Origin: Prorocentrum cordatum
Taxonomy: Eukaryota
Length of the DNA: 64,000 bases
Direction of reading: 5' to 3'
NCBI GenBank assembly: GCA_963575745.1
Contig: CAUYUJ010000004.1
Location: 124,001-188,000, forward strand
The translations under genes and the position numbers were made by a program. Below are positions 38,868 through 57,200 of the stretch, in pieces. The notes under the pieces were generated by a model. That model saw only the letters and a list, made by a program, of their open reading frames with translations, was not told where the DNA came from and did not search any database. Each line of letters begins with the position of its first letter. Position 1 is the stretch's first letter.

Positions 38868-38893
38868 TCGACGACGACGACGACGAAGGCGGC

Positions 38894-38925
<32 letters not shown>

Positions 38926-38926
<1 letters not shown>

Positions 38927-39539
38927 TGGTGGGAGTCGTTGGGGCCCCTCGTGGTGTGAGTCGTTCGGCCCCATCGTCCTTGTGTGAGTCCTTCGGGCCC
39001 CTCTTCCTGGTGTGAGTCGTTCGGGCTCCTCGTGGTGTGAGTCGTTCGGGCCCCTCGTCCTGGTGTGAGCCGTTCGGGCTCCTCGTGGTTCGAGTCGTTC
39101 GGGCCTCTCGTCCTGGTGTGAGTCGTTCGGGCCCTTCTTCCTGGTGTGAGTCGTTCGGGCTCTTCGTGGTGTGAGTCGTTCGGGCTCTTCGTCCTGGTGT
39201 GAGTCGTTCGGGCTTCTCGTGGTGTGAGTTGTTCGGGCCCCTCGTCCTGGTGTGAGTCGTTCGGGCCCCTCCTCCTGGTGTGACTCGTTCGGGCTCCTCG
39301 TGGTGTGAGTCGTTCGGGGCCCTCGTCCTGGTGTGAGTCGTTCGGGCTCCTCGTGGTGTGAGTCGTTCGGGCGCCTCGTCCTGGTGTGAGTCGTCGGGCC
39401 CTTCCTTCTGGTGTGAGTCGTTCGGGCTCTTCGTGGTGTGAGTCGTTCGGGCCCCTCGTCCTGGTGTGAGTCGTTCGGGCTCCTCGTGGTGTGAGGCGTT
39501 CGGGCACCTCGTCCTGGTGCGAGTCGTTCGGGCCCCTCG

Positions 39540-39540
<1 letters not shown>
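38926..39540. repeat. 25/28-bp minisatellite TGGTGTGAGTCGTTCGGGC(T/C)CCTCG(TCC)
   Basis: About 23 adjacent units with no unique spacers. Confidence 0.92.
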
Positions 39541-40070
<530 letters not shown>

Positions 40071-40529
40071 CTACAGTCGAACAGCTATCTCCGAACAGCA
40101 ACCCCAGCGAAGCATGCCGACAGTCGTTTGGTGCAGGCGTGTGTCTGCCTGCCTTCGCATATATCCTCTGTTCCTATTTCCTTCTGCCTCCTTGTACATC
40201 CTCCTTGTGGGGGAGCGCGAGGAGGACGAGTCGGAGGAGGAGGAGGGAGTGAAGGAGTTGGGAGGCAAGACAGAGGGCGGTCGTCGTCGAGTCCAGCGAT
40301 CTCCCCCGACCAGTTGTGCAGCGAACGTGGCTCGGCACGGATGCGCAGGACTCCCTCATCGCAAGGTGTGGGAACCATGCGCGTGATCTCTGCGCCGCTC
40401 GTAATGGCAAGGTGTGGTAACCCATCCGCGACGACGACGACGATGGCGAGCGATGAGGGCGACGACGACGACGACGGCGACGACGACGGGTCAACCAATA
40501 GGGCGTTTCTGGGCATTTCTCTCTGAAGG

Positions 40530-40687
40530 TGCTGGGAAGTTTGTAGTTTTACATATATATGTGATTATAGAGAATATAATCAGACTGTCCTGGAGGATCC
40601 AGGAAATCCTGCAGCCCTTTGTTGCTCGAGGAAAAGAGCGACCCTCACCTCCCCCCTTTCTCCGCGAGGGGGGTGGGTGCGCGTGCA
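40530..40687 (+). repeat. 5' LTR (158 bp)
   Basis: TGCTGGGAAG...GCGCGTGCA; identical by eye to 47456-47613. Confidence 0.96.
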
Positions 40688-40699
40688 TGGTAGCGGAGC
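40688..40699 (+). promoter_or_regulatory. Primer-binding site (initiator tRNA-Met type)
   Basis: TGGTAGCGGAGC immediately after the LTR; complementary to a tRNA 3' end ...GCUCCGCUACCA. Confidence 0.85.
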
Positions 40700-41119
40700 T
40701 CGCTTGAGGTTCGCGGGCCGCTCCGCACCCCAGCGAGCTCCAGGAGCCCCTCGAGAGGGCCCAGCGGCGCGACGCCGCGGGTCCGGCAGCCAGCGGGACG
40801 ATCCACGCGGCTGCCGAACGAAGTACCCCTTGCTGGTCAGAGCTGCGGTCAGACCCGCGCTCTGGCAGCGGAGGCCAGCCAGCCAACAAGGGCAAGGGCA
40901 AGGCCACGCTGAAGGCCAAGAAGCCGAACAAGCGAGGAGGCAGAGCGGCGGACACGCGTGAGCACCGCCAGCTACGAGGGACCGCTTTTAGGAAGCTTGC
41001 GGCGTGCGGCAGCAAGGCGAAGCTCACTCAGGAGGAGCGAGCAGCAGTGAAGAGGCAGCTGGCGAGCGACATCGAGAGGCTGGAGAAGCGTGTCACTGAC
41101 GTGCTCGACGACGACCAAG

Positions 41120-44100
41120 ATGGAGCAGCAGCTGCAGCAACTGGTCGATCAAGTTCAGAGACTGACGACGGAGAGTCAGAACATGAGGCAGGAGCTTCAG
41201 AACAGGGACGTGCAGATCGCAGAGATGAGAGGACAACTGCAGGGTCAGCAGCAGGCTCAGCAGCAGGCTCAGCAGCAGCGGGTAGCCCCGCGCGGCGAGA
41301 TGATGGATCCGAAGATCCTTCACAAGGTGAAGCCGTTCGACGGCCAAAGGTCAAGCTGGAAGACGTTCAGCTTCCAGTACAGAGCGTACCTGATCGCGCA
41401 GGATCGGAGGTACCGAGATCTTCTGGAAAGGTGCGAGGACGGAGCCCAGGAGGTGGACAACGTCAACCTGGACCCGCAGGAGGAAGAACTCAGCACGCAG
41501 TTGTACTACGGCCTGGTCCTGGCCATGCCCGAGGACTCGGTGGGCGAGCTGATCGTGAGGAACAGCCCAGTAGGAGAAGGAGCCGAGTGTTGGAGGAAGC
41601 TTCAGAAGGAGTACAACCCGAGCGAGGCAGGCAACGTACTGGCGATGTGGACCAAGCTCACGGACACGAAGTTCGACGCCAAGGAAGACGTGATGGTGAG
41701 CATCAGCAAGCTGGACGAGGACATGGCGAGGTACCAGAAGATGGCAGGAGAGGCCGTCTCGGACCTGATCAAGCGCGGCATCCTCACAAAGGCGCTGAAG
41801 GATCACGACGAGCTCCAGAAGCACGTGTTTCGGAACAGCAGTCGGTTAAGTACGTACGAGCTTCTGAGAGCCGAGGTGGTGTCGGCGTTGGCGGCAGAGC
41901 GAGCGGTTCAGGACGACCCGATGGAGATCGGAGCGCTGAAGGGCGGAAAGAGACCGTGGAAAGGCCGCGGCAAAGGGAAAGACGGCAAAGGCAAGGAGAA
42001 GCCACCGAATCCCGACGCCGAGATCGAGTGCCACTACTGCCACAAGAAGGGTCACCGCAGCGCAAACTGCCGAAAGCGGATCGCCGACGAGAAGAAGACA
42101 CCCGAGAAGGACAAGAAGGACAAGAAGCAGTTCCGAAAAGAGAAGGCAAAAGAAAAGAAGAAGATCGGGGCAGCGGCAGTCAGGGAGCTCGAAAGGTTAC
42201 GACAGACAGGAGTGGGCACAGGATCAAGCTCGACAGCACCGACACAACAGATGCTAGGAAGTCAGGGAAGCGCCGACAGCGCGATGACTCAGCAGGTGCT
42301 GCGCCCAGTCAACTGTGCGCTGCGAGCGAAGATGATTCTGGCCCTGAGGGCAGAGGTCACAAGAAGCGCAGCCACACGATCGACTGGAAGTACTGCTTGC
42401 CTAGCTACTACCAATATGTATGCTGCTCTTGCAAGAAGACCTTTGAAGGACGGCGATGGCACTACGATCAGTGGAAGCTGGACTACTGTGCCGTGTGTGC
42501 CGAGTACTGCCTGGACGGCCTCAAGGACGGGGAAGAGCCAGACGACGACAAGAAGCCAAAGAAGCGCAAGAAAGGCTAGATTCGTCGCTGACGACCGTCA
42601 GTGCTGCGATATGCCAGCTGCGGTGAGCCCCGCGCTGGCCGGCCCCAGGCCTGTTACCATCGCTGGTCTTCGGCCCGTGGATGAAGATCAGAGCCCTGCG
42701 GATGACCGATTGCGGTTAGCCCCGCTTCGGAATGCGATCATGCTCGATTCAGGTGCGCAGATCAGTGCGATACCGAGGTCACAGGTGACCAAGCACAACT
42801 ACACGCCGACGGACAGCAACGTTGTCGGCTTGAAGGGCATAGGAGGCGAGGAGATCGAGAGGTACGGCCACGTGGAGCTGAACCTATCCCGAGGAGGAGA
42901 GGTTATTCAAGTCGGTGCTGAGGTTGCCGATGTGGAGTACCCAGTTGTGGCTACAGACGCTGTAGTACAACGTGGTCAGAGTGTTCTTCATAGCCCTGCA
43001 GGTCACTGGATCATCAACGGTACCATCGAGCCACCTGATGGAGCTGAGTTCGTACCTCTACGTCGTCACCAAGGCAACTACTACTTAGAGTACGATCACA
43101 TCATCGACGGCCAGACTCAACCAGAAGCTTCAAAGGTAGCTGCGGTACGAAAGACACTACCAAGGAAGGTACCAGCTGAACAGGAAGCTGGAGCTTTGCC
43201 GAAGGTTCTAGGTCCCGAAGCTGATGAGACCACAACTGTGCCAACGAGAGTGTTGAAGACTCCTCACCAACCTAGTGCTGCGGAGAGAGCCGCGCACGAA
43301 GGGCATCATCTACCTTTTCGGCCTTGGTGTCCCATCTGCGTGCAGGCTCGAGCAGACGATGACCCCCACCACGCTCAGGAACCAGCTGATGAGAACAAGA
43401 TCCCGAAGGTGGTGTTCGACATCTTTTACGTAGGGACAGACCAGCTGGCTGCGAAGTACAAGCTTAAAGGAGGTTACTTCAGCATCAGGGAGAAGACGTC
43501 GGTCACGAAGGCCGAGTTAGACCAAGCGGTCTCTGTCTTGAATGTTATCGACTGTAAGATCTTGGCTCAGGCGACGTTGTACGCGAACAAGGAGACGGAT
43601 GACTACAAGGTGTCCTTCCTGCTAGGCGTGCTGGAAGCTTGGGGTCACACAACAGTCATACTTCAGACAGACCAGGAGCCTGCCACCATGGCTCTGGCGC
43701 AGGCAGTTCGAGATCGCAGATCACACTCAACCTTGGTGCGGGGATCACCGCCCTTTTCCAAGCAGAGTGCAGGCTACGCTGAAGGAGGTAACAAGCTAGC
43801 AGCTGGTCTACTTCGAGCCTACAAGCTGAAGCTGGAGCACAAGCTGGGCAGCGAGATCAAGATGACGGATCCGATCGTGCCATGGCTTGTGAACTCAGTG
43901 GGGTGGATGATCACCAGATTCCAGCCTCGCAGTCACGGAGGTTCCTCCTACAAGATGCTCTACGGCAAAGAGTACAACGGCGAGATTGCGGAGATGGGTG
44001 AGCAGGTCTGGTATCGGATCTCAGCCCGAGTTGCCGCGGGACGTGGCAAATGGGAAGCCCGCTTCGCAAAAGGAATCTGGGTTGGTAAGAGCGAGCTGGA

Positions 44101-44839
44101 CGACGCACATCTCGTGATCGATCCTGAACGTGGAGTGCAGAAGGTGAGAACGGTGCGAAGGATGCCTGAGGAGTTCAGGTGGCAGCCCGAGCTCATCCAG
44201 CACATCAGGGTGACGCCCTGGAAGCAGACGCCCGACAAGAGTTCAGGAACGATCGGACGCAGCATGTACATCACGGAGCGCATGATCGATGCTCATGGTC
44301 CTACCGACGATTGCAGGAAGTGCAGTACAGGATACGGTTCGCATTCGGCATCCTGCCGACAGCGTTTCGAGACCATTCAGGCCGACTTGCTGCGCGAGAA
44401 GTTGGCGAAGGACCCTGTGGCCCCTGAGGCTACAGTCGTGGTGCCAGCGCCGGCTGCGGGAAGCCCCGCGCCTGGAGCCGCACCCGGAGGAGCAGCGGCA
44501 TCAAGCAGCAGTGAGGTTGCGGTGAGCCCCGCACCTGCTGCCAGTGACGTAGCTATGGTTCCTGGCCCAGGAGAGGCTGAGGTGCAGACAGCCATGGACA
44601 CGGAGAGTGGAGAGCTCAGGAGCGACTTTCGGCGAAGCGCCCCAGGTGAAGTTCGTGAAGGAGCTGAGGTCAAGAAGCCCAGGGTAGCAAGCATTGGGCA
44701 TCTCTCTGTCTGTGAGTTGGCAGTCTGCGAGGAGGGCTACGACGAGAGCTTCGACCCCATGTGGGATCCACACCCAAAGCGCAGTGCGAGATGTTCCGAG
44801 AGGTGTGAGAAGCACTCATCACGATGCCAGCTACGATAA
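41120..44839 (+). CDS. Copia Gag-protease-integrase polyprotein, ending at a single in-frame TAA
   Basis: ATG at 41120; Gag PFDGQRSSW and AECWRKLQKEY; CCHC knuckle CHYCHKKGHRSANC; aspartic protease IMLDSGA; integrase H-x3-H...CPIC and D(VFDIF)-D(QTDQE)-E(GYAE). Confidence 0.93.
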   Translation: MEQQLQQLVDQVQRLTTESQNMRQELQNRDVQIAEMRGQLQGQQQAQQQAQQQRVAPRGEMMDPKILHKVKPFDGQRSSWKTFSFQYRAYLIAQDRRYRDLLERCEDGAQEVDNVNLDPQEEELSTQLYYGLVLAMPEDSVGELIVRNSPVGEGAECWRKLQKEYNPSEAGNVLAMWTKLTDTKFDAKEDVMVSISKLDEDMARYQKMAGEAVSDLIKRGILTKALKDHDELQKHVFRNSSRLSTYELLRAEVVSALAAERAVQDDPMEIGALKGGKRPWKGRGKGKDGKGKEKPPNPDAEIECHYCHKKGHRSANCRKRIADEKKTPEKDKKDKKQFRKEKAKEKKKIGAAAVRELERLRQTGVGTGSSSTAPTQQMLGSQGSADSAMTQQVLRPVNCALRAKMILALRAEVTRSAATRSTGSTACLATTNMYAALARRPLKDGDGTTISGSWTTVPCVPSTAWTASRTGKSQTTTRSQRSARKARFVADDRQCCDMPAAVSPALAGPRPVTIAGLRPVDEDQSPADDRLRLAPLRNAIMLDSGAQISAIPRSQVTKHNYTPTDSNVVGLKGIGGEEIERYGHVELNLSRGGEVIQVGAEVADVEYPVVATDAVVQRGQSVLHSPAGHWIINGTIEPPDGAEFVPLRRHQGNYYLEYDHIIDGQTQPEASKVAAVRKTLPRKVPAEQEAGALPKVLGPEADETTTVPTRVLKTPHQPSAAERAAHEGHHLPFRPWCPICVQARADDDPHHAQEPADENKIPKVVFDIFYVGTDQLAAKYKLKGGYFSIREKTSVTKAELDQAVSVLNVIDCKILAQATLYANKETDDYKVSFLLGVLEAWGHTTVILQTDQEPATMALAQAVRDRRSHSTLVRGSPPFSKQSAGYAEGGNKLAAGLLRAYKLKLEHKLGSEIKMTDPIVPWLVNSVGWMITRFQPRSHGGSSYKMLYGKEYNGEIAEMGEQVWYRISARVAAGRGKWEARFAKGIWVGKSELDDAHLVIDPERGVQKVRTVRRMPEEFRWQPELIQHIRVTPWKQTPDKSSGTIGRSMYITERMIDAHGPTDDCRKCSTGYGSHSASCRQRFETIQADLLREKLAKDPVAPEATVVVPAPAAGSPAPGAAPGGAAASSSSEVAVSPAPAASDVAMVPGPGEAEVQTAMDTESGELRSDFRRSAPGEVREGAEVKKPRVASIGHLSVCELAVCEEGYDESFDPMWDPHPKRSARCSERCEKHSSRCQLR

Positions 44840-46207
44840 TGCCACCAAGCTGAGTGTGCATGCAGGAGATGTTTGATGAGCCACATCGGCACAATCAGGA
44901 GCCACTTCGGAGATCCTGAGGAGCAGCAGGTGGAGCAGATGGTTGAGGTGAGCGCCGAGCTGCATGAGAAAGACCAGTGGAGCCCAAAGACGATACACTA
45001 TGATTACTACACTGGAGAGCCTCTGGATGAGGACCTGTATCAGAAGGGTCGCGACGACGAGCTGCAGGCCATGAAGGACTACGGGGTCTACGTGGAAGTG
45101 GCGACATCGACGGCGACCGACGGCAAGCACATTGGAGGTTTCCCGATAGCCCACATGAAAGAAGGAAAGGTCAGGTGGAGGTTCGTAGCGACCGAGGTGA
45201 ACAAGTACGAGGTCAGGGAGGACAACCACCAAGGCACGCCCCCGCTCATGATCGTCAGAGCGACGCTGAGCCGTGCCGCTTCAAGTCCAACTTCCAGCGG
45301 GCAGCACCTGCGGAAGATACAAGTCTGGGACGTCAGGAAGGCTTTCTTCAACGCTGACTTAGACGAGACGATCTACGTGCATCCTGGGAGAGAGCTGTGT
45401 CCGCCTGGAAGGTGCTGGTGGTTACGCAAGGCCATGAACGGTACCAGGAAGGCGTCGCAGATGTGGGGTGAGCTTGTGAGAACTACTATGGACGACGGCC
45501 ATTGGGAATGCTTGGTTGGAACTCCTAACGTGTTCTACTTACCTGCTAGCCCCAACACAGCCCCCTTCGACGAGGATAGCACAGCGATCTGCCATGGCGA
45601 TGACTTTCTTGCTGAAGGCTACGACGAGCAGCTGGACGAGCTGGACGAGTTGTTGAAGCAGCAGTTTGAGGTCACGGCCAGCGCCAGACTTGGACCAGGA
45701 GCGGTGGGGCAGACTACATACCTCAAGAGGACGATCGGCTACACCGACAAGTTGCCAGGTTGCGAGGAGCCAGGTTTCTTCTGGACTGCCGATCCCAAGC
45801 ATGTGGACTTCATGATCAAGTGGACGCAGAAGCGAGGTTGTAAACCAGCTCCCACTCCAGGGACGAAAGCTACAGGACAAGGCCGACGAGACAGCCTAGA
45901 CCTTCTTTCCAAGGATCGTGCTCGAGAAGTGGCGGGTGCAGCTGGCACCGCTCTTTACCTTTCTTCGGACAGGCCCGACACGATGTACGCCAGCAAGACA
46001 GCGATGCAGCACGTCTCCAACCCGAACGTCTTGATGCATGCGCGTGTTCAGCGACTTGGAAGGTACTACGAAGGACAGCCTGTGTTGGTCTGGTGTTACC
46101 CACTTCAAGGTACTCCTGAAGGCATTCGTGTAGATGGTGACGCGGATTGGGCACCTACGAGTGAACTACAGCGGCGATCTACCAGTGGAGGAGCTGTGAG
46201 GTATGGG
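44840..46207 (+). CDS. Copia reverse transcriptase and start of RNase H, in the same frame as Gag-IN
   Basis: DVRKAFFNADL, LRKAMNGTRKA, ICHGDDFL (YxDD equivalent), VDGDADWA...RRSTSGG. Confidence 0.93.
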
Positions 46208-47244
46208 ATCACACTTGGGACTGCTACTCAGTGACGCAGAGTACGATAGCCCTAAGTTCAGGGGAATCCGAGATGTACGCTACGGGAAGTGCGACAGCCA
46301 GAGGACTTCAGTGTAAGACTTACCTGATCGAGACCCAGAGGCCCTGCAACCTGAAGATCTATAGTGACAGCACAGCTGGACGTGGCATGTGCAGTCGAGT
46401 TGGGGTGGGCAAGGTCAGGCACCTGGAGTTGAGGTACTTGTGGATTCAGGAGCGGTTGCGTCTCAAGGCGTTCGAGCTGCACAAGGAGGACACCAGCAAG
46501 ATGACAGCCGACATGCTCACGAAGTACAGCGAGTGGCCGACAATCGAGAAGCATTGCACCACTCTCAACCTCAGGTTCGGAAAGCAGTTGAAGGGCTTGA
46601 GCGCAATGGCAGTTTTCACGGAGGTCGTGACGAAGGCGTCAGGCGAGAAGGTGACAGTGTACGGAGGTTCTGACGAGGTTGCGGTTTGCCCCGCGCCTGT
46701 CAGCCACTACGTGGACAGCGAGGAGTTCTGGTTCTTCCTGAAGTTGGGACTAGTTGTGGTGACTGCAGCCAGTGCTTTCTTACTGGGGTGCTGGTGTGGT
46801 TGTTACTTCAAGGACTTCTACGACAAGTTCCTCCTCCAGGGTGCGGTTGACCCCGCCTCTGGAAGCACGTGTATACCATCTGCGCGGGCTGAGGCCGAGT
46901 TCAAGACCGTGTGTGTACAGCAGGACAAAGGAGCAAGGCACAAGCTCTTAAGCACGTTTCTTGTAGCTGAGCTGCGAGCTGTCTTGAAGGCCAAGAGCCT
47001 GGCCGTGTCAGGGATCAAGGAGGACCTGGTCACGAGGATGATCAAGCACGGATGCGTTCTGTCGGATCGCCAGGCCAAGGAGATCGAGCAGCTGCGAGTG
47101 ATGGCTACAGCGCGAGGACCTCTTACCAAGCTCAGCTTGCAGGACATCAGCAGTCCAGAGGCCGCGCAGAAGTGGATCGAGACGTTCAAGAGCGAGTGCG
47201 GAGACCGTTCCAGAGGCTCTCAGGTGATCCACGGAGAGGGCTAG
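46207..47244 (+). CDS. Remainder of RNase H after a 1-nt frameshift, plus a ~220-aa extension with a TM helix and SAP-like motif
   Basis: DHTWDCYSVTQSTIALSSGESE, IYSDS, RHLELRYLWIQE, ADMLTK; then FWFFLKLGLVVVTAASAFLLGCWCGCYF and LSTFLVAELRAVLKAKSLAVSGIKEDLVTRM. Confidence 0.88.
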   Translation, partial: DHTWDCYSVTQSTIALSSGESEMYATGSATARGLQCKTYLIETQRPCNLKIYSDSTAGRGMCSRVGVGKVRHLELRYLWIQERLRLKAFELHKEDTSKMTADMLTKYSEWPTIEKHCTTLNLRFGKQLKGLSAMAVFTEVVTKASGEKVTVYGGSDEVAVCPAPVSHYVDSEEFWFFLKLGLVVVTAASAFLLGCWCGCYFKDFYDKFLLQGAVDPASGSTCIPSARAEAEFKTVCVQQDKGARHKLLSTFLVAELRAVLKAKSLAVSGIKEDLVTRMIKHGCVLSDRQAKEIEQLRVMATARGPLTKLSLQDISSPEAAQKWIETFKSECGDRSRGSQVIHGEG

Positions 47245-47446
47245 GAGAATGGTCGCAGGAAGCACTACGACAGCCGAAGGTGAGCTTTCTTTTACAGGCT
47301 GCGGTTTGCCCCGCGCCTGCCCTCTGCGGGTAGCCCCGCGATGGGCTTAGGCGGGCAGCGCCGTTGCGAAGCCTGCTCAGGGAGCACAAAGTGGTTTCCC
47401 TGTGGCTCACGTTTCTCGACTGGAGGCCGAGCCGCTTCCAGCGCCC

Positions 47447-47455
47447 AAGGAGAGG
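47447..47455 (+). promoter_or_regulatory. Polypurine tract
   Basis: AAGGAGAGG abutting the 3' LTR. Confidence 0.85.
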
Positions 47456-47613
47456 TGCTGGGAAGTTTGTAGTTTTACATATATATGTGATTATAGAGAA
47501 TATAATCAGACTGTCCTGGAGGATCCAGGAAATCCTGCAGCCCTTTGTTGCTCGAGGAAAAGAGCGACCCTCACCTCCCCCCTTTCTCCGCGAGGGGGGT
47601 GGGTGCGCGTGCA
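47456..47613 (+). repeat. 3' LTR (158 bp)
   Basis: Matches the 5' LTR and is followed by the TSD GAAGG. Confidence 0.96.
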
Positions 47614-48026
47614 GAAGGCATAGTTCGGAGATTGGCAGTGAGCTTAGCTCTGCCCATCCAGCAACCTGTTCGACCAGTTGTGCAGTGATATCTAGAGACC
47701 GCCAGCGGGCTACACCACACCAAGAACCAAAAACCAAGAAAGGAACCAAGAGCCAGCAAAGGCGAGATTGGAGGAATCAGCAAAGGAGAGATTTCAGGAT
47801 CCACACCGCACTGCACCGCACTACACCACCCCGCACGAATACCACGCCACACCGCACCACGCCGCACCACGCCGCACCGCACCACACTAGACACCACTTC
47901 TCACCAGTACGCACCATCAGACGACGACACTACAGCTCAAGAGGCCCCCAGGAAGCGCCACGAGGTCACCGAGGCTCTCAGGAGAGGCCCAAGTCTCTAT
48001 TTTCCTCCAGCGTTGTCGTCGTTGTT

Positions 48027-53531: not shown

Positions 53532-54260
53532 CTAGCGGCGGCCGCGGCCACCGCCGCCACCTCGGCCCCCCTCCGTCCGGCGGTGCTTGCGCCCAGGGAG
53601 CTCGTCATCGCCGTCTCCGTTCTTCCCGGCAAGCCAATCAACCAAGTACTTCACGAGCGGGCCGTCCTCAGTCTTGGCCGGAGCCACGGTGAGGTTGTCG
53701 TACTTGGTCTCATACGCTGCCGCGATGACGAGGGCATCACGAAACTCCTGCGGCGCTGCCATGGCCACCACGAGGTACCACACCCACGGGCGTGTCGGGT
53801 CCGCGTGCGGGTCCAGGTGCTTGGGCTTGAGGCGGAAGACTGACCGCTCGATGGCCGGGCCGTCCATGTTGTTGAGGTAGTCGAGAGCGGTCTTCACCCT
53901 CGCGTCGTGCTGGCTGCCGTCCCCCTTCTGCTTGTAGGTGTCCTTCATCGTGACCACCATGCGCGCGAAGAGGATCACACGCTGCGAGCACCCGGCGGGA
54001 TGTGGAGACCCGTCCGACGGCTTGGCATCCCGCCACTCCTTCCGCTGCTTCACCACCTGGTCTTTGACTGCTGGGTCTTTGAGCACTACAGCGATCGTGG
54101 ACCGATCCGCGAGCTCGGCGATCGCCCTGTCGTGTGCCACAAGCAACTGGGCCATCGCTCGCTGGACGCCTCCGGGGCGCGCCCCGGGCCTGGCCTGCAA
54201 CGCCGGCGCCGGCTGACTGGCTCCCGCCGCCGCCGCTCCGTCGAGAAGCGCCTGCGCCAT
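53532..54260 (-). CDS. 242-aa uncharacterised ORF downstream of, and overlapping, the LINE RT ORF
   Basis: Intact, non-repetitive, GC3-rich frame MAQALLDG...MAQLLVAHDRAIAEL...PWVWYLVVAM...GRGRR*. Confidence 0.65.
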   Translation of the reverse strand: MAQALLDGAAAAGASQPAPALQARPGARPGGVQRAMAQLLVAHDRAIAELADRSTIAVVLKDPAVKDQVVKQRKEWRDAKPSDGSPHPAGCSQRVILFARMVVTMKDTYKQKGDGSQHDARVKTALDYLNNMDGPAIERSVFRLKPKHLDPHADPTRPWVWYLVVAMAAPQEFRDALVIAAAYETKYDNLTVAPAKTEDGPLVKYLVDWLAGKNGDGDDELPGRKHRRTEGGRGGGGGRGRR

Positions 54261-57200
54261 GACTACTGGCAGGAAGCGCTGTCCAACGAGCGTGCTGAGC
54301 CGAGGCTTCCGCTGGCGTAAGCATGTGTTTGTACTGACCAACTGGAATGCCACTCACAACGCAACGTTTACGGCATGCACCAGAATGAACACGCAAATGG
54401 AAAATGGATGGATATCGGAGGCCACAATGCTCACAACACAACGTCCATTGCATGACAGCGGCCGGACCGTATTGTTTCAACTGCGATGCCAAGATCCGTG
54501 CCCTCGCCTCCTGCACGGCTTGCTCCGGATGCGGGAGCCCAGGGGGAAGGGCAAGGGGAGGGGGGGAGGGGGGAGGGGGAGGGGGAGCGGAGGCAGAGGA
54601 GGAGGAGGAGGCAGCCGCAACAGCAGAGGGAGGAGGCGAGGGAGGAGGAGGGCCAAGGAGAGGGACAAGGTCAAGAATTTTGTCGTGTTGACCCTGCGCA
54701 ACCGCCGCCTGTCCGGCAGGTGTCTGCCGCCCTGGTTGCCTCCGCTTTTGTTGCCGCGCCGTCAGAGTACGAGAGCTCTCTCCGACAGCCTTGCAACTGA
54801 GCCTCTGGTGTTGTTTCAAGCTTCGGCGCTGCACCTGCGTACCACAATTCGGACATGGGACAAGCTCGAGAGACTGTGCTGTGGCCGGGCGACGGGCCGG
54901 GCGAGGGGCGACATCCTCGTGAGCCACCACCGCCGCGGTGTCCGGCCGAGTGTTGCGAGGAATGCGTCTGCCCACGTCGTCAGCACGAAGCTCCCGACGC
55001 ACGCGCAACTTTTCCTCCTCCTCCTCTGCGTTGCGCATGTGGTGAGAGTCTAACGAATCCACCTTGCGACGCCATGCTGTCCAGGCCCCGACCGCGCGCT
55101 GCCAAGCCTCCCGGCTCGCAGCCACCGTCTTCCAAGCGTGTTCGTCGTCGGCTGGGTGACCGCCTTCTCGCATAACCTGACGGAGAAGTTCCCGGCTCTG
55201 GCTCCGCCACGTCGTACCCTGCTTACTGGCGCGGGGCACGGAGCCTTCCGGAGCGAGCTGTCCGAAAGCGAGCTGGCGTTCCAAGCGGTCCGTGGGGTAA
55301 CGACACAAGTGACCAAGGTAGCCAAGCTTGCGTTTACCGATGGCAGTCTCAACAGTGTCAATGCCGACCCGCTCGCGCAAGTCTTGCATTGTCAACTTTC
55401 CTTTCATGTCCATCATGGTAAACTTCTGGCTGAGGGCAATGCCCCGGACACAACGATTCATGAATGACTGATACATGCCCAATTCCTTCGTGGTGAATGG
55501 TCTCACCTCCGACCCGTAGAGTAGGGATGCCTCCACTGTCGCCCTGAGCACCTCGCCTTTTTGGCGTAAGGTTAGTCCCAGGCGCGGGAGTTGCCTGTAG
55601 ACTTTGTACCAGATCTTATTGGCCTTCTTAATCCGCTCATTGGTACCTTTCAGGGTGTCACCGGTGGAGGACAGCCAACAACCGAGCAACTCTGCGTGTT
55701 CCGTAAACTGCAATTCCTCCGCGGGCTCCGAGGCAGGGTCTGGGCGGCCGCGGCGGGCAGGACCCTTGCCGCGTAACCTGCGTGCCTTGCCGGGCGCGGG
55801 GACCGGGGCTGGGGCAGAGGGCTGTGCCACGAGGGAGGAACGGTCTGCCGGCCCTTTGCCTCGAAGTCGTCGCCTACTCGGGATTGGGGGGTCGACCGCT
55901 CTCTTAAAGCGCACAAGCTGCCACTTGTCCGGGTGTACAACTTCGCACCAGTCCGACAGAATGCGCGTGACCAGGCGCTTGCGGTCCTGGACCGTCGAAA
56001 CCCGTTCGAGTAGGGTCGTATCATCGGCAAAACACAGCATGCGCAACAGCACTTTCTCCCATTCTTCCTGCACGCGCTTGAAAGCATGCGCCTGCAGACC
56101 ACCAATGGGAGCCTCGGGATGAGTGCGTACCTCCACCGCCGGTCCTCCTGCAGAGTCCATGTGGTTACAGTAATCCCGCAGGACGGCATTGTGAAAGAAC
56201 AGGTACACTACGCAAGAAGATGGACAGCCTTCTCTCAAACCTTTCGCCAGTTGGTACCGCTCGCTAACCCCAAGCTGATTGCGGCACACATAGTGTGTGT
56301 CAGAGTGAATGTGTGTCAGCAAGTTCACAACATGAGCGGGCACGCCTTCGTTGCTGAGGATTCGCCAGGCCGCGTTCCGAGGAACGCTGGGATAGGCCTT
56401 CTGGATGTCCAGCAAAGCCACGCAGAGATCATCCAGGTCCTCGCTGCGAACCTTGGTGACCGTTTCGACTAGCAGCCGCGCCACGAGGACCACATCTATA
56501 CAAGACCGGTGGGCTTGAAACCCCCACTGGTCGGCTCGAAAGATGTGGTGTTGGCGAGCATAATCGCTGAGTCAAACTGCTACGACGCGTGCAACCACTC
56601 TACTCACGATCGACAACAGACAGATACCACGATAGTTGGTCAGCTTGCTGCGGTCGCCCTTTTTGAACAGGGCTATCACTTCCGCTGCATGTGCCTCCTC
56701 CTCCCAACTATCTGGCGCCTGCCAGTACCGGCGTACAAGGTCAAAGAAACGCTGTTGCAGAGCAGGGGCCGCAAGGCGAAGCATATTTATCGTCACCTCG
56801 TCCGGGCCTGCAGCGCTTTCCTTCATTTTTCCACACCTTCTGTATCTCTGCACCGGAAGGAATATCCGCGAGAGACTCCTGGGTGGGGCGAGCAGCCGGG
56901 AGGCGTTCCAGCACTGACTCCGCGACAATCGATTCGTCCCGTCCGATGCTGTGGAAATGCTCCCGGAGCTGCTCTGGTGTGTGTTGAATCCGACCTTTCA
57001 TTGTGCTGCCCGACATCGTAACGCCGAGTTCTCTCAAGCCTGCATAGAAACGGCCCTTGTCCCCCAGTGCCGTGGCGTGTTCTAGCTCACGCACAACGCT
57101 GTCAACCCATGCCCTGCGCCACGTCCGTCGCTTCCGACGGAAAGCCGCCTTCTCCTGGCGTAATTGTTCTCGTAACTGCACCTCCCGGCTGGCAGCAGGA

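Follow-up and report, generated by a model that had tools for sequence, protein, structure and literature searches.

Introduction

Retrotransposon accessory domains govern where and how integration takes place, and are a rich source of targeting biology. In chromoviruses, which belong to the Ty3/gypsy superfamily, a chromodomain lies at the end of the integrase and there is no membrane helix. Sireviruses are Ty1/copia elements with a separate, long env-like open reading frame (ORF), which encodes hydrophobic segments and no SAP domain. Dinoflagellate retrotransposons have reportedly acquired DNA methyltransferases, a result attributed to de Mendoza et al., 2018. Here, we analyzed a stretch of 64,000 nucleotides of the dinoflagellate Prorocentrum cordatum (positions 124,001 to 188,000 of contig CAUYUJ010000004.1, assembly GCA_963575745.1; hereafter the window, with positions counted from its first letter). 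Positions 40530-47613 of the window are a complete Ty1/copia long terminal repeat (LTR) retrotransposon. Its Pol extends past RNase H into a conserved tail that comprises a candidate membrane helix, a SAP domain, and a further helical domain (hereafter C-domain).

The tail shares with the chromoviruses a DNA- or chromatin-reading accessory domain in C-terminal position on Pol, and if it directs integration, they are its closest functional analogs. They are nevertheless of another superfamily and carry the chromodomain on the integrase, whereas the copia tail follows RNase H and has a helix. The resemblance to Sireviruses lies in the Ty1/copia type and in the presence of extra coding sequence after pol, including hydrophobic segments. 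However, the Sirevirus env-like gene is a separate and much longer ORF that has no SAP domain, whereas the tail is an in-frame fusion of 221 residues. The tail, short and continuous with the RNase H frame, is therefore no env-like gene of the Sirevirus kind. The methyltransferase-bearing dinoflagellate elements are likewise a case of capture of a host chromatin-related domain, albeit of a different domain with a different function.

Among proteins outside transposable elements, the tail has the same SAP helix-loop-helix motif as Tho1 (structures 1h1j and 4uzw) and Hcc-1/SARNP (2do1), which we take to be mRNA-export proteins. These are soluble nuclear proteins, whereas the SAP domain of the tail has a hydrophobic helix before it and a C-domain of around 55 residues after it. 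The HeH/LEM proteins (Heh1/Src1, Heh2, MAN1, emerin, and LAP2) resemble the tail in combining a SAP-related helix-extension-helix motif with a membrane span. In these proteins, however, the DNA-binding motif is N-terminal to the span or spans, and the MAN1/Src1 group has an MSC domain. In the tail, a single helix comes first, the SAP domain comes after it, and there is no MSC domain.

An accessory SAP domain has been described in other mobile elements, namely Penelope-like elements of the Chlamys type in Physarum and DNA transposons of the Zisupton group (PMC8557442). These are other classes of elements: in Chlamys-1_pPol the SAP domain lies inside the reverse transcriptase (RT) region, and the part of that source on which we rely reports no membrane helix. 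The Ty1-copia-like elements of another dinoflagellate, Symbiodinium microadriaticum, are described with canonical domains only, i.e., integrase, RT, RNase H, and LTRs, and the words 'SAP' and 'transmembrane' do not occur in the text of that article (PMC5776459). We searched open-access papers and preprints, mostly at the level of titles and abstracts, and found no published copia Pol with a SAP domain or a membrane helix. Similarly, nine files of the proteome supplements of PMC10449503 contain none of the terms 'Pol polyprotein', 'SAP domain', 'TNT 1-94', 'retrotransposon', and 'Retrovirus-related'. The SAP assignment itself is not new to databases, since automatic annotation has given proteins of P. 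cordatum nearly identical to ours the names 'SAP domain-containing protein' and 'Retrovirus-related Pol polyprotein from transposon TNT 1-94'.

The tail has a candidate membrane helix and a SAP domain

A preliminary description of this locus, made from the sequence, had reported that the frame stays open for about 220 residues after RNase H. We confirm both the length and the placement of this extension: frame 1 is open from position 46165 to the TAG at 47242-47244, and 46579-47241 make 221 codons past RNase H, followed by the stop. The assignment of the protein to Ty1/copia Pol and the position of the tail beyond the usual end of such a Pol were also supported. The tail has a GC3 of 0.72, like the remaining coding region. 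To describe its structure, we used an AlphaFold2 model computed from an alignment of 31 sequences (mean pLDDT of 73). Residues 1-47 of the tail have no confident structure, a single continuous helix spans residues 48-87 (pLDDT of 88-89 over residues 51-70), and a compact helical part covers residues 119-213 (pLDDT of 87-96), with helices at 119-124, 129-138, 147-157, 163-179, 187-190, and 193-213. A two-copy model of residues 40-216, which addresses self-association, scored 0.01.

The hydrophobic segment that had been described at 46726-46809 is present. It corresponds to residues 50-77, where the best 19-residue Kyte-Doolittle mean is 2.06, and this is the sole place of the polyprotein where the mean exceeds 1.6 (the next value is 1.25). 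The segment is conserved in 20 of the 24 sequences scanned, in which the maximum at the corresponding position is 1.84-2.68 in spite of differing residues. Its end, G-C-x-C-G, takes the forms GCWCG, GCACG, GCCCG, GFCCG, and GMCCG and is found in nearly all the sequences scanned. The flanks of the segment are asymmetric in charge in the 20 sequences: the 15 residues before it are net negative in 17 and net neutral in three (0 to -5), and the 15 residues after it include 1-5 K/R. In other words, hydropathy describes an uncharged helix, conserved in kind and with a charge bias, as is found in single-pass membrane proteins, and we consider it a candidate span. According to the positive-inside rule, the flank rich in K/R stays in the cytosol. 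An acidic flank on the N-terminal side and K/R on the C-terminal side thus predict that the N-terminus is outside, in the lumen, and that the SAP domain and the C-domain are cytosolic or nucleoplasmic. Where a membrane span ends on the cytosolic side, cysteines are typical acylation sites.

The SAP assignment of the preliminary description passed tests of profile, fold, and motif. The Pfam profile PF02037 matches residues 129-153 of the tail (46963-47037) with an E-value of 2.1e-5 and 24.4 bits, the curated cut-off being 23.9. When 12 relatives bearing the module were searched with the same profile, eight were above the cut-off (up to 39.9 bits), three were below it, and one had no match. In the model, the motif is made of the helices 129-138 and 147-157, with a pLDDT of around 96. 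The model of the whole tail superposes on the SAP domain of Tho1 at 1.6 Å (1h1j) and 0.7 Å (4uzw), over 33 columns with 39% identity. A model of residues 113-221 gave 0.7 Å for 4uzw, 0.6 Å for Hcc-1 (2do1), 1.6 Å for 1h1j, and 1.8 Å for PIAS1 (1v66), and the superpositions on Tho1 and Hcc-1 span 33-34 columns with 35-39% identity. As expected for a domain of around 34 residues, each of these matches has a Foldseek E-value above 0.1, and the fold match is supportive but not decisive by itself. In addition, a profile built from 11 family members (A4, the alignment of Pol-linked sequences) matches the sequence of the Tho1 SAP domain with an E-value of 3e-4. The near-invariant positions in the 31 sequences are V143, G145, K147, R153, L154, Q165, G180, D189, A196, and W199. 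Given the joint evidence of profile, fold, and motif, residues 119-157 are a SAP domain. Such domains bind RNA and proteins too.

The C-domain is as well conserved as the SAP domain. A wide structural search with this domain alone found no fold counterpart above a Z-score of 4.3, with rows resembling chance, and the same search with the whole tail found none above 4.4, the matches being mostly single long helices. In the ESM Atlas, the tail had no usable feature match, and one of its small relatives, P0026 (see below), matched generic SAP clusters only (TM of 0.26-0.34). The preliminary description had also likened the tail to the inner-nuclear-membrane tethers that combine a transmembrane segment with SAP or LEM. 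This likeness did not hold: the order of the parts is reversed, and a scan of the tail with the profiles of LEM (PF03020), HeH (PF12949), and MSC gave none at an E-value of 1 or less, leaving SAP as the sole match. As a control, the multi-SAP protein P0022 matched both HeH and LEM in the same library.

Conservation of the tail in Pol-linked relatives

We searched 1.84 billion representative sequences with the tail and found 35 proteins with E-values of at most 1e-3, 12 of at most 1e-10, and six of at most 1e-30. Word-based searches added 10 relatives from 3746 longer candidates and 13 from 587 candidates of similar length. Seven of the 10 longer relatives are gene models of P. cordatum with Pol ahead of the tail, including P0056 and P0058. 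The former is an uninterrupted ORF of 1934 residues from ENA, with gag, pol, and the tail, and has 16 member sequences. We computed identities to the window copy, which was translated past its two breaks with an X at each (see below). P0056 is 94% identical in RT, 91% in RNase H, and 63% in the tail, and the corresponding values for P0058 are 86%, 79%, and 59%. Within the tail, the identities of P0056 and P0058 are, respectively, 72% and 66% in the C-domain, 62% and 55% in the SAP domain, 67% and 63% in the helix, 44% and 43% in the linker between the helix and the SAP domain, and 38% and 56% in the last 16 residues.

The preliminary description had raised the question of whether the extension is stop-ridden or drifts neutrally in related copies. 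It is neither stop-ridden nor drifting freely, as the stop is kept and the replacements are conservative. Nine relatives end at the same tail stop (P0002, P0053, P0054, P0055, P0056, P0058, P0061, P0063, and P0065). For comparison, we ran 400 neutral substitution walks from the DNA of the window, in which indels are ignored: a stop was acquired in 69.5% of them by 90% identity, in 99.5% by 63%, and in 99.25% by 59%. Neutral walks that remained free of stops gave less conservative replacements than those observed: in the five comparisons made, 0-4 of 200 walks reached the observed mean BLOSUM62 score. The helix and its charge asymmetry persist down to relatives at 22-28% identity. In our reading of these sequences, the constraint on the helix, the SAP domain, and the C-domain appears real but much weaker than that on the enzymes, and the linker appears to be free or fast-evolving.

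The window copy has two breaks ahead of the tail, an in-frame stop and a one-base frame change (Table 1). We compared the element with the contigs of four public sequencing runs, including X1, X2, X3, and X9. Among the 24 runs listed as carrying it, none was of RNA. The first base of the stop codon, at 44837, differs and gives a sense codon at all contig depth in the four runs. The extra base that is found behind 46206 has full depth in X2, X3, and X9, and a depth of 48.2 out of 179.8 in X1. The intact relatives P0054 and P0056 have E at the position of the stop and read RYGDHTWD across the frame change, while the P. cordatum gene models P0002 and P0052 skip the region around the latter. Since the run contigs are open and the intact relatives have E and RYGDHTWD at these places, the family has one gag-pol-tail frame. 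The sharing of the frame change in X1, together with the identical LTRs of the window copy, suggests that a defective, frameshifted subfamily is still spreading, being presumably copied in trans.

Relatives of the module outside Pol

The SAP domain and the C-domain, mostly behind a hydrophobic helix, are an unannotated module family in marine protists. To compare its two groups, we aligned A4 with A5, the alignment of small distant ORFs, using hhalign, and obtained a probability of 99.85% with an E-value of 9.2e-31 over 100 columns, covering both domains. The small ORFs P0026, P0029, P0031, and P0036 have a hydrophobic helix of their own at 8-50 residues from the N-terminus, followed by a linker, the SAP domain, and the C-domain. 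There is a weak alignment between the N-terminal residues of these ORFs and those of the tail. In the cluster of P0031, nine of the 10 members start with M-P-[RH]. The linker of P0026 contains basic clusters. No longer, Pol-fused forms of the A5 group were found among 8000 candidates, which is weak evidence.

The stand-alone state could be read from DNA for P0029 only, as P0026, the P0031 cluster, and P0036 are known as called ORFs. The gene of P0029 lies in a locus of 1012 nt (L002), with upstream stops in all frames and no Pol. It is placed between 28-nt direct repeats that are 834 nt apart, and (CTAG)n is found at both ends of the contig. By sequence, this locus resembles a single unit within a tandem array of genes. 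Two further relatives have other fronts. P0059 (465 residues) is 57% identical to the tail and has a front of 290 residues with no Pfam family and unlike the element. P0004 (242 residues) is 69% identical to the tail and has a low-complexity front that is not RNase H. Both end early, with ...IETINWRT.

As the tail is homologous to the small ORFs and P0029 stands alone, the module occurs both on a copia Pol and in at least one free gene. Most simply, pol would have captured a small cellular gene at its 3' end. The opposite may also apply, in which case the small genes would have been born from the tails of elements. In metagenome contigs, a search with the A4 alignment gave 275 pattern matches, none of which was confirmed, and in viral contigs, the P0031 query found no locus. 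A candidate from viral contigs for the A4 query (L001) was rejected: its ORF of 761 residues has a chance SDPEAAEQWIE stretch and no SAP domain, and seems phage-primase-like by eye.

What the tail may do for the element

We consider it probable, with some reservation, that selection maintains the tail as an accessory module in a single Ty1/copia lineage of P. cordatum and its relatives, and that the tail is a membrane-anchored nucleic-acid-binding adaptor instead of read-through junk. The helix would sit in an endomembrane, either the endoplasmic reticulum (ER) or the nuclear envelope. On the cytosolic or nucleoplasmic side of this membrane, the SAP domain and the C-domain would hold DNA, or the RNA or cDNA of the element, and some step of its cycle would be tied to the surface of the membrane. 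The tail would either be released from Pol by the protease of the element, within the conserved stretch before the helix, or be made from a separate message. Some 1,840 residues of Gag-Pol fold in the cytosol ahead of the helix, so that a fusion would force the SAP domain into the lumen. This orientation clashes with the conserved charges, and the tail therefore probably acts after its release from Pol.

Several observations weigh against this adaptor. The predicted orientation, with the SAP domain in the cytosol, is unreachable as a Pol fusion, and for this reason the idea of a tether needs a tail that is cleaved or made separately. The preliminary description did not take this into account, and it also overlooked the small relatives and the frame change of the window copy. 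A hydrophobicity of 2.06 is reached by 397 of 5000 shuffles of the tail; the evidence for the helix is thus in its conservation, because composition often gives such values. The helix is deleted in P0065, and P0016, P0020, and P0024, as called, have the SAP domain and the C-domain but no hydrophobic segment. Parts of the linker are missing in P0064 and P0058. The window copy cannot translate the tail with Pol, given its TAA and its frame change, and the latter is common to most of the depth in run X1. Close copies differ more in the tail than in the enzymes: P0053 has 14 differences in the 221 residues of the tail vs one in 552 of RT and RNase H, and P0054 has 21 in 221 vs one in 516. This contrast suggests that subfamilies have recombined or that the tail has undergone fast adaptive change. 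Contig pieces of X3 differ at 13 of 1787 bases in 44924-46709 (the RT/RNase H stretch), at 8 of 283 in 46814-47096 (linker and SAP), and at 8 of 285 in 47201-47485 (mostly untranslated). The divergence of linker and SAP is thus close to that of the untranslated stretch, and the tail may drift near the neutral rate over short times. The argument from open frames is biased, as protein databases contain only open frames. Finally, the deep nodes of the module tree have supports of 23-48 only and indicate no direction of transfer between the element and the small genes; P0029 is misplaced by a long branch, and the gamma shape of 1.99 is uninformative.

Some of these observations might be expected if the tail were a decaying passenger of no use to the element, or if the helix packed or oligomerized instead of spanning a membrane. 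Among close copies, amino-acid change is 30-50 times faster in the tail than in RT/RNase H, the nucleotide divergence of contig pieces resembles that of the untranslated part, and the helix or a portion of the linker is gone from some copies. Moreover, the frameshifted subfamily, with its identical LTRs and most of the X1 depth, seems to be still spreading. Yet, the frame and the position of the stop are kept at 59-63% identity with conservative replacements, positions of the SAP domain and the C-domain are near-invariant, and the helix retains its charge asymmetry in the relatives at 22-28% identity, and we regard this reading, in either form, as very unlikely. We also considered that the Pol fusion might be inserted in the membrane as it is. 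A large folded N-terminal part forces a lumenal C-terminus under signal-anchor rules, and the SAP domain and C-domain would then lie in the ER or perinuclear lumen and act by binding a protein rather than DNA, much as MANF binds BiP through its SAP-like domain. The MANF SAP-BiP complex (6h9u) is indeed among the weak structural matches (Z of 3.0), but it is no better than the chance rows. Furthermore, the K/R after the helix and the acidic residues before it argue for the opposite orientation in 20 sequences, and the small relatives have just 8-50 residues ahead of the helix, so that we regard a lumenal SAP domain as highly improbable.

More specific versions of the membrane-anchored adaptor concern the membrane and the ligand. 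The released module could be a protein of the inner nuclear membrane whose SAP domain holds chromosomal DNA or cDNA, leading to integration at a persistent nuclear envelope. We see this as possible, if unlikely. It agrees with the SAP domain and the candidate span, with the charge pattern that puts the SAP domain on the cytosolic or nucleoplasmic side, with the basic clusters of the P0026 linker, and with an extramembrane part of around 145 residues, which is small enough for diffusion past the pores to the inner membrane. It also agrees with the persistence of the dinoflagellate nuclear envelope through the cell cycle, as given in the part of the source used here (PMC10449503). However, the tail matches none of the LEM, HeH, and MSC profiles, the linker of the window copy has no basic nuclear-targeting cluster, a cleavage or a separate message would be required, and our results do not separate the nuclear envelope from the ER or other membranes. 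That SAP domains also bind RNA and proteins is a further point against it. It is quite unlikely that the tail is, in addition, the element-borne copy of a protist single-pass family that pins DNA to the nuclear envelope via SAP, and that, once cut from Pol, it docks the cDNA or the integration complex at the inner nuclear membrane. Alternatively, the helix could anchor Gag-Pol or the released tail on the cytoplasmic side of the ER as an assembly platform, where the SAP domain and the C-domain would bind the RNA or cDNA of the element. The same structural evidence applies here, Tho1 and Hcc-1, whose SAP domains are the nearest of known structure, are presumably mRNA-export proteins, and membrane-linked assembly has a precedent in the Gag of yeast Ty1. 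The small relatives suggest instead a cellular role unrelated to the assembly of particles, and we find such a platform rather unlikely.

Organization of the element and its surroundings

The element has hallmarks of an LTR retrotransposon, i.e., LTRs of the type TG...CA, a 5-bp target-site duplication, a primer-binding-site-like stretch, and a purine tract (Table 1). Its Pfam matches are below the cut-offs: Retrotran_gag_2 has an E-value of 1.1e-4 (22.2 bits vs a cut-off of 27), RVT_2 has 1.1e-6 (28.9 bits vs 31.6), and Asp_protease_2 has 0.012. No Pfam integrase family matched the element at an E-value of 1 or less; an HHCC-like motif can be seen by eye in the translation between the protease-like match and RT. 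A 19-nt stretch of each LTR (40612-40630 and 47538-47556) resembles what we take to be the dinoflagellate spliced leader. There is no second copy of the element within the window.

Table 1. Features of the Ty1/copia element of P. cordatum and of its Pol tail, in window coordinates.
Feature	Position	Strand	Evidence or remark
5' target-site duplication, GAAGG	40525..40529	+	Same 5 bases after the 3' LTR
5' LTR, 158 nt, TG...CA	40530..40687	+	100% identical to 47456-47613
Primer-binding-site-like stretch, starting with TGG and adjoining the 5' LTR	40688..40703	+	Read from sequence; candidate
gag (copia-type, CCHC knuckle), protease, and integrase-like region, from the ATG at 41120	41120..44836	+	Pfam matches below cut-off; HHCC-like motif by eye
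In-frame TAA, specific to this copy among the runs compared	44837..44839	+	Other first base in the runs; P0054 and P0056 have E
Reverse transcriptase, copia type	44840..46204	+	Pfam RVT_2 below cut-off; 94% identity with P0056
One-base frame change in a G run	46205..46207	+	Extra base behind 46206 in run contigs; intact relatives read RYGDHTWD
RNase H, end ...ADMLTK...LNLRF	46207..46578	+	Translation; 91% identity with P0056, 100% with P0053 and P0054
Tail segment before the helix (residues 1-49), conserved AVCPAP..HYVDSEEF	46579..46725	+	76% identity with P0056; pLDDT 41-60
Hydrophobic helix (residues 50-77), end G-C-x-C-G, candidate membrane span	46726..46809	+	Kyte-Doolittle, AlphaFold2, conservation
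Variable linker (around residues 78-118)	46810..46932	+	pLDDT <50 for residues 93-115; 43-44% identity; in-frame length changes in relatives
SAP domain (residues 119-157; Pfam match at 46963-47037)	46933..47049	+	Profile, fold, motif
Conserved helical C-domain (residues 163-213; QAKEIEQLR...RGP...DISSPEAAQKWIE)	47065..47217	+	pLDDT 87-96; no fold match
Tail stop codon, TAG	47242..47244	+	Same end (IH..[GS]) in nine relatives
Polypurine tract AAGGAGAGG, adjoining the 3' LTR	47447..47455	+	Read from sequence
3' LTR, 158 nt	47456..47613	+	100% identical to the 5' LTR
3' target-site duplication, GAAGG	47614..47618	+	Matches 40525..40529

A direct repeat of 24 nt on the + strand, identical at 23 of the 24 positions, brackets the part of the tail that encodes the helix, the SAP domain, and the C-domain. 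Its first copy (46676-46699) codes for VAVCPAP, and the second (47296-47319) is in the 3' untranslated part. A weaker copy is found at 46838-46861, and similar stretches at 44455-44474 and 44518-44537. With up to three mismatches, the repeat has four matches in the window vs 0.01 expected, and none of 100 shuffles gave four. The first copy begins with AG|GT, and the second is preceded by a pyrimidine run ending in AG. Judged by sequence, the two copies resemble splice sites or the trace left by an insertion. We considered splicing across the module and rejected it: the repeats carry splice-like signals, but no joint was found in the DNA contigs of the four runs. A diverged copy in X2 has a similar motif at the place of the second repeat (with a loose end at 47286).

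Other repeats surround the insertion. Tandem arrays lie just upstream of the element, at 38873-40100 of the window. One has a period of 25, 28, or 53 nt, at 38873-39594, and another has a period of 9 nt, with 80 overlapping 300-nt registers among those listed, from 39395 on. Triplet repeats rich in GAC flank the insertion on both sides. The window comprises a second retroelement, unrelated to the copia element: an ORF of 944 residues on the minus strand (53737-56571) encodes a non-LTR-type RT (RVT_1, E-value of 1.9e-9, 38 bits vs a cut-off of 29.6).

Implications

The conserved copia Pol tail with a membrane-helix candidate and a SAP domain describes an LTR retrotransposon with an accessory domain, and the idea that it is a tether is plausible but unproven. 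Were the tail a fast-drifting passenger, it would still clearly illustrate the capture of a gene by a copia pol at its 3' end. The chromatin of the dinoflagellate nucleus is not based on nucleosomes, and its envelope persists through division. A Pol with a membrane helix and a SAP domain at its end would be a new solution to targeting, in a host with such an unusual nucleus. The module is also a compact handle, a protein of 180 residues. If the proteins of this family anchor nucleic acid to membranes, they would bear on the attachment of dinoflagellate chromosomes to the envelope. If, more specifically, they pin DNA to the nuclear envelope, the free-standing relatives of the tail would be candidates for the long-sought links between chromosomes and envelope.

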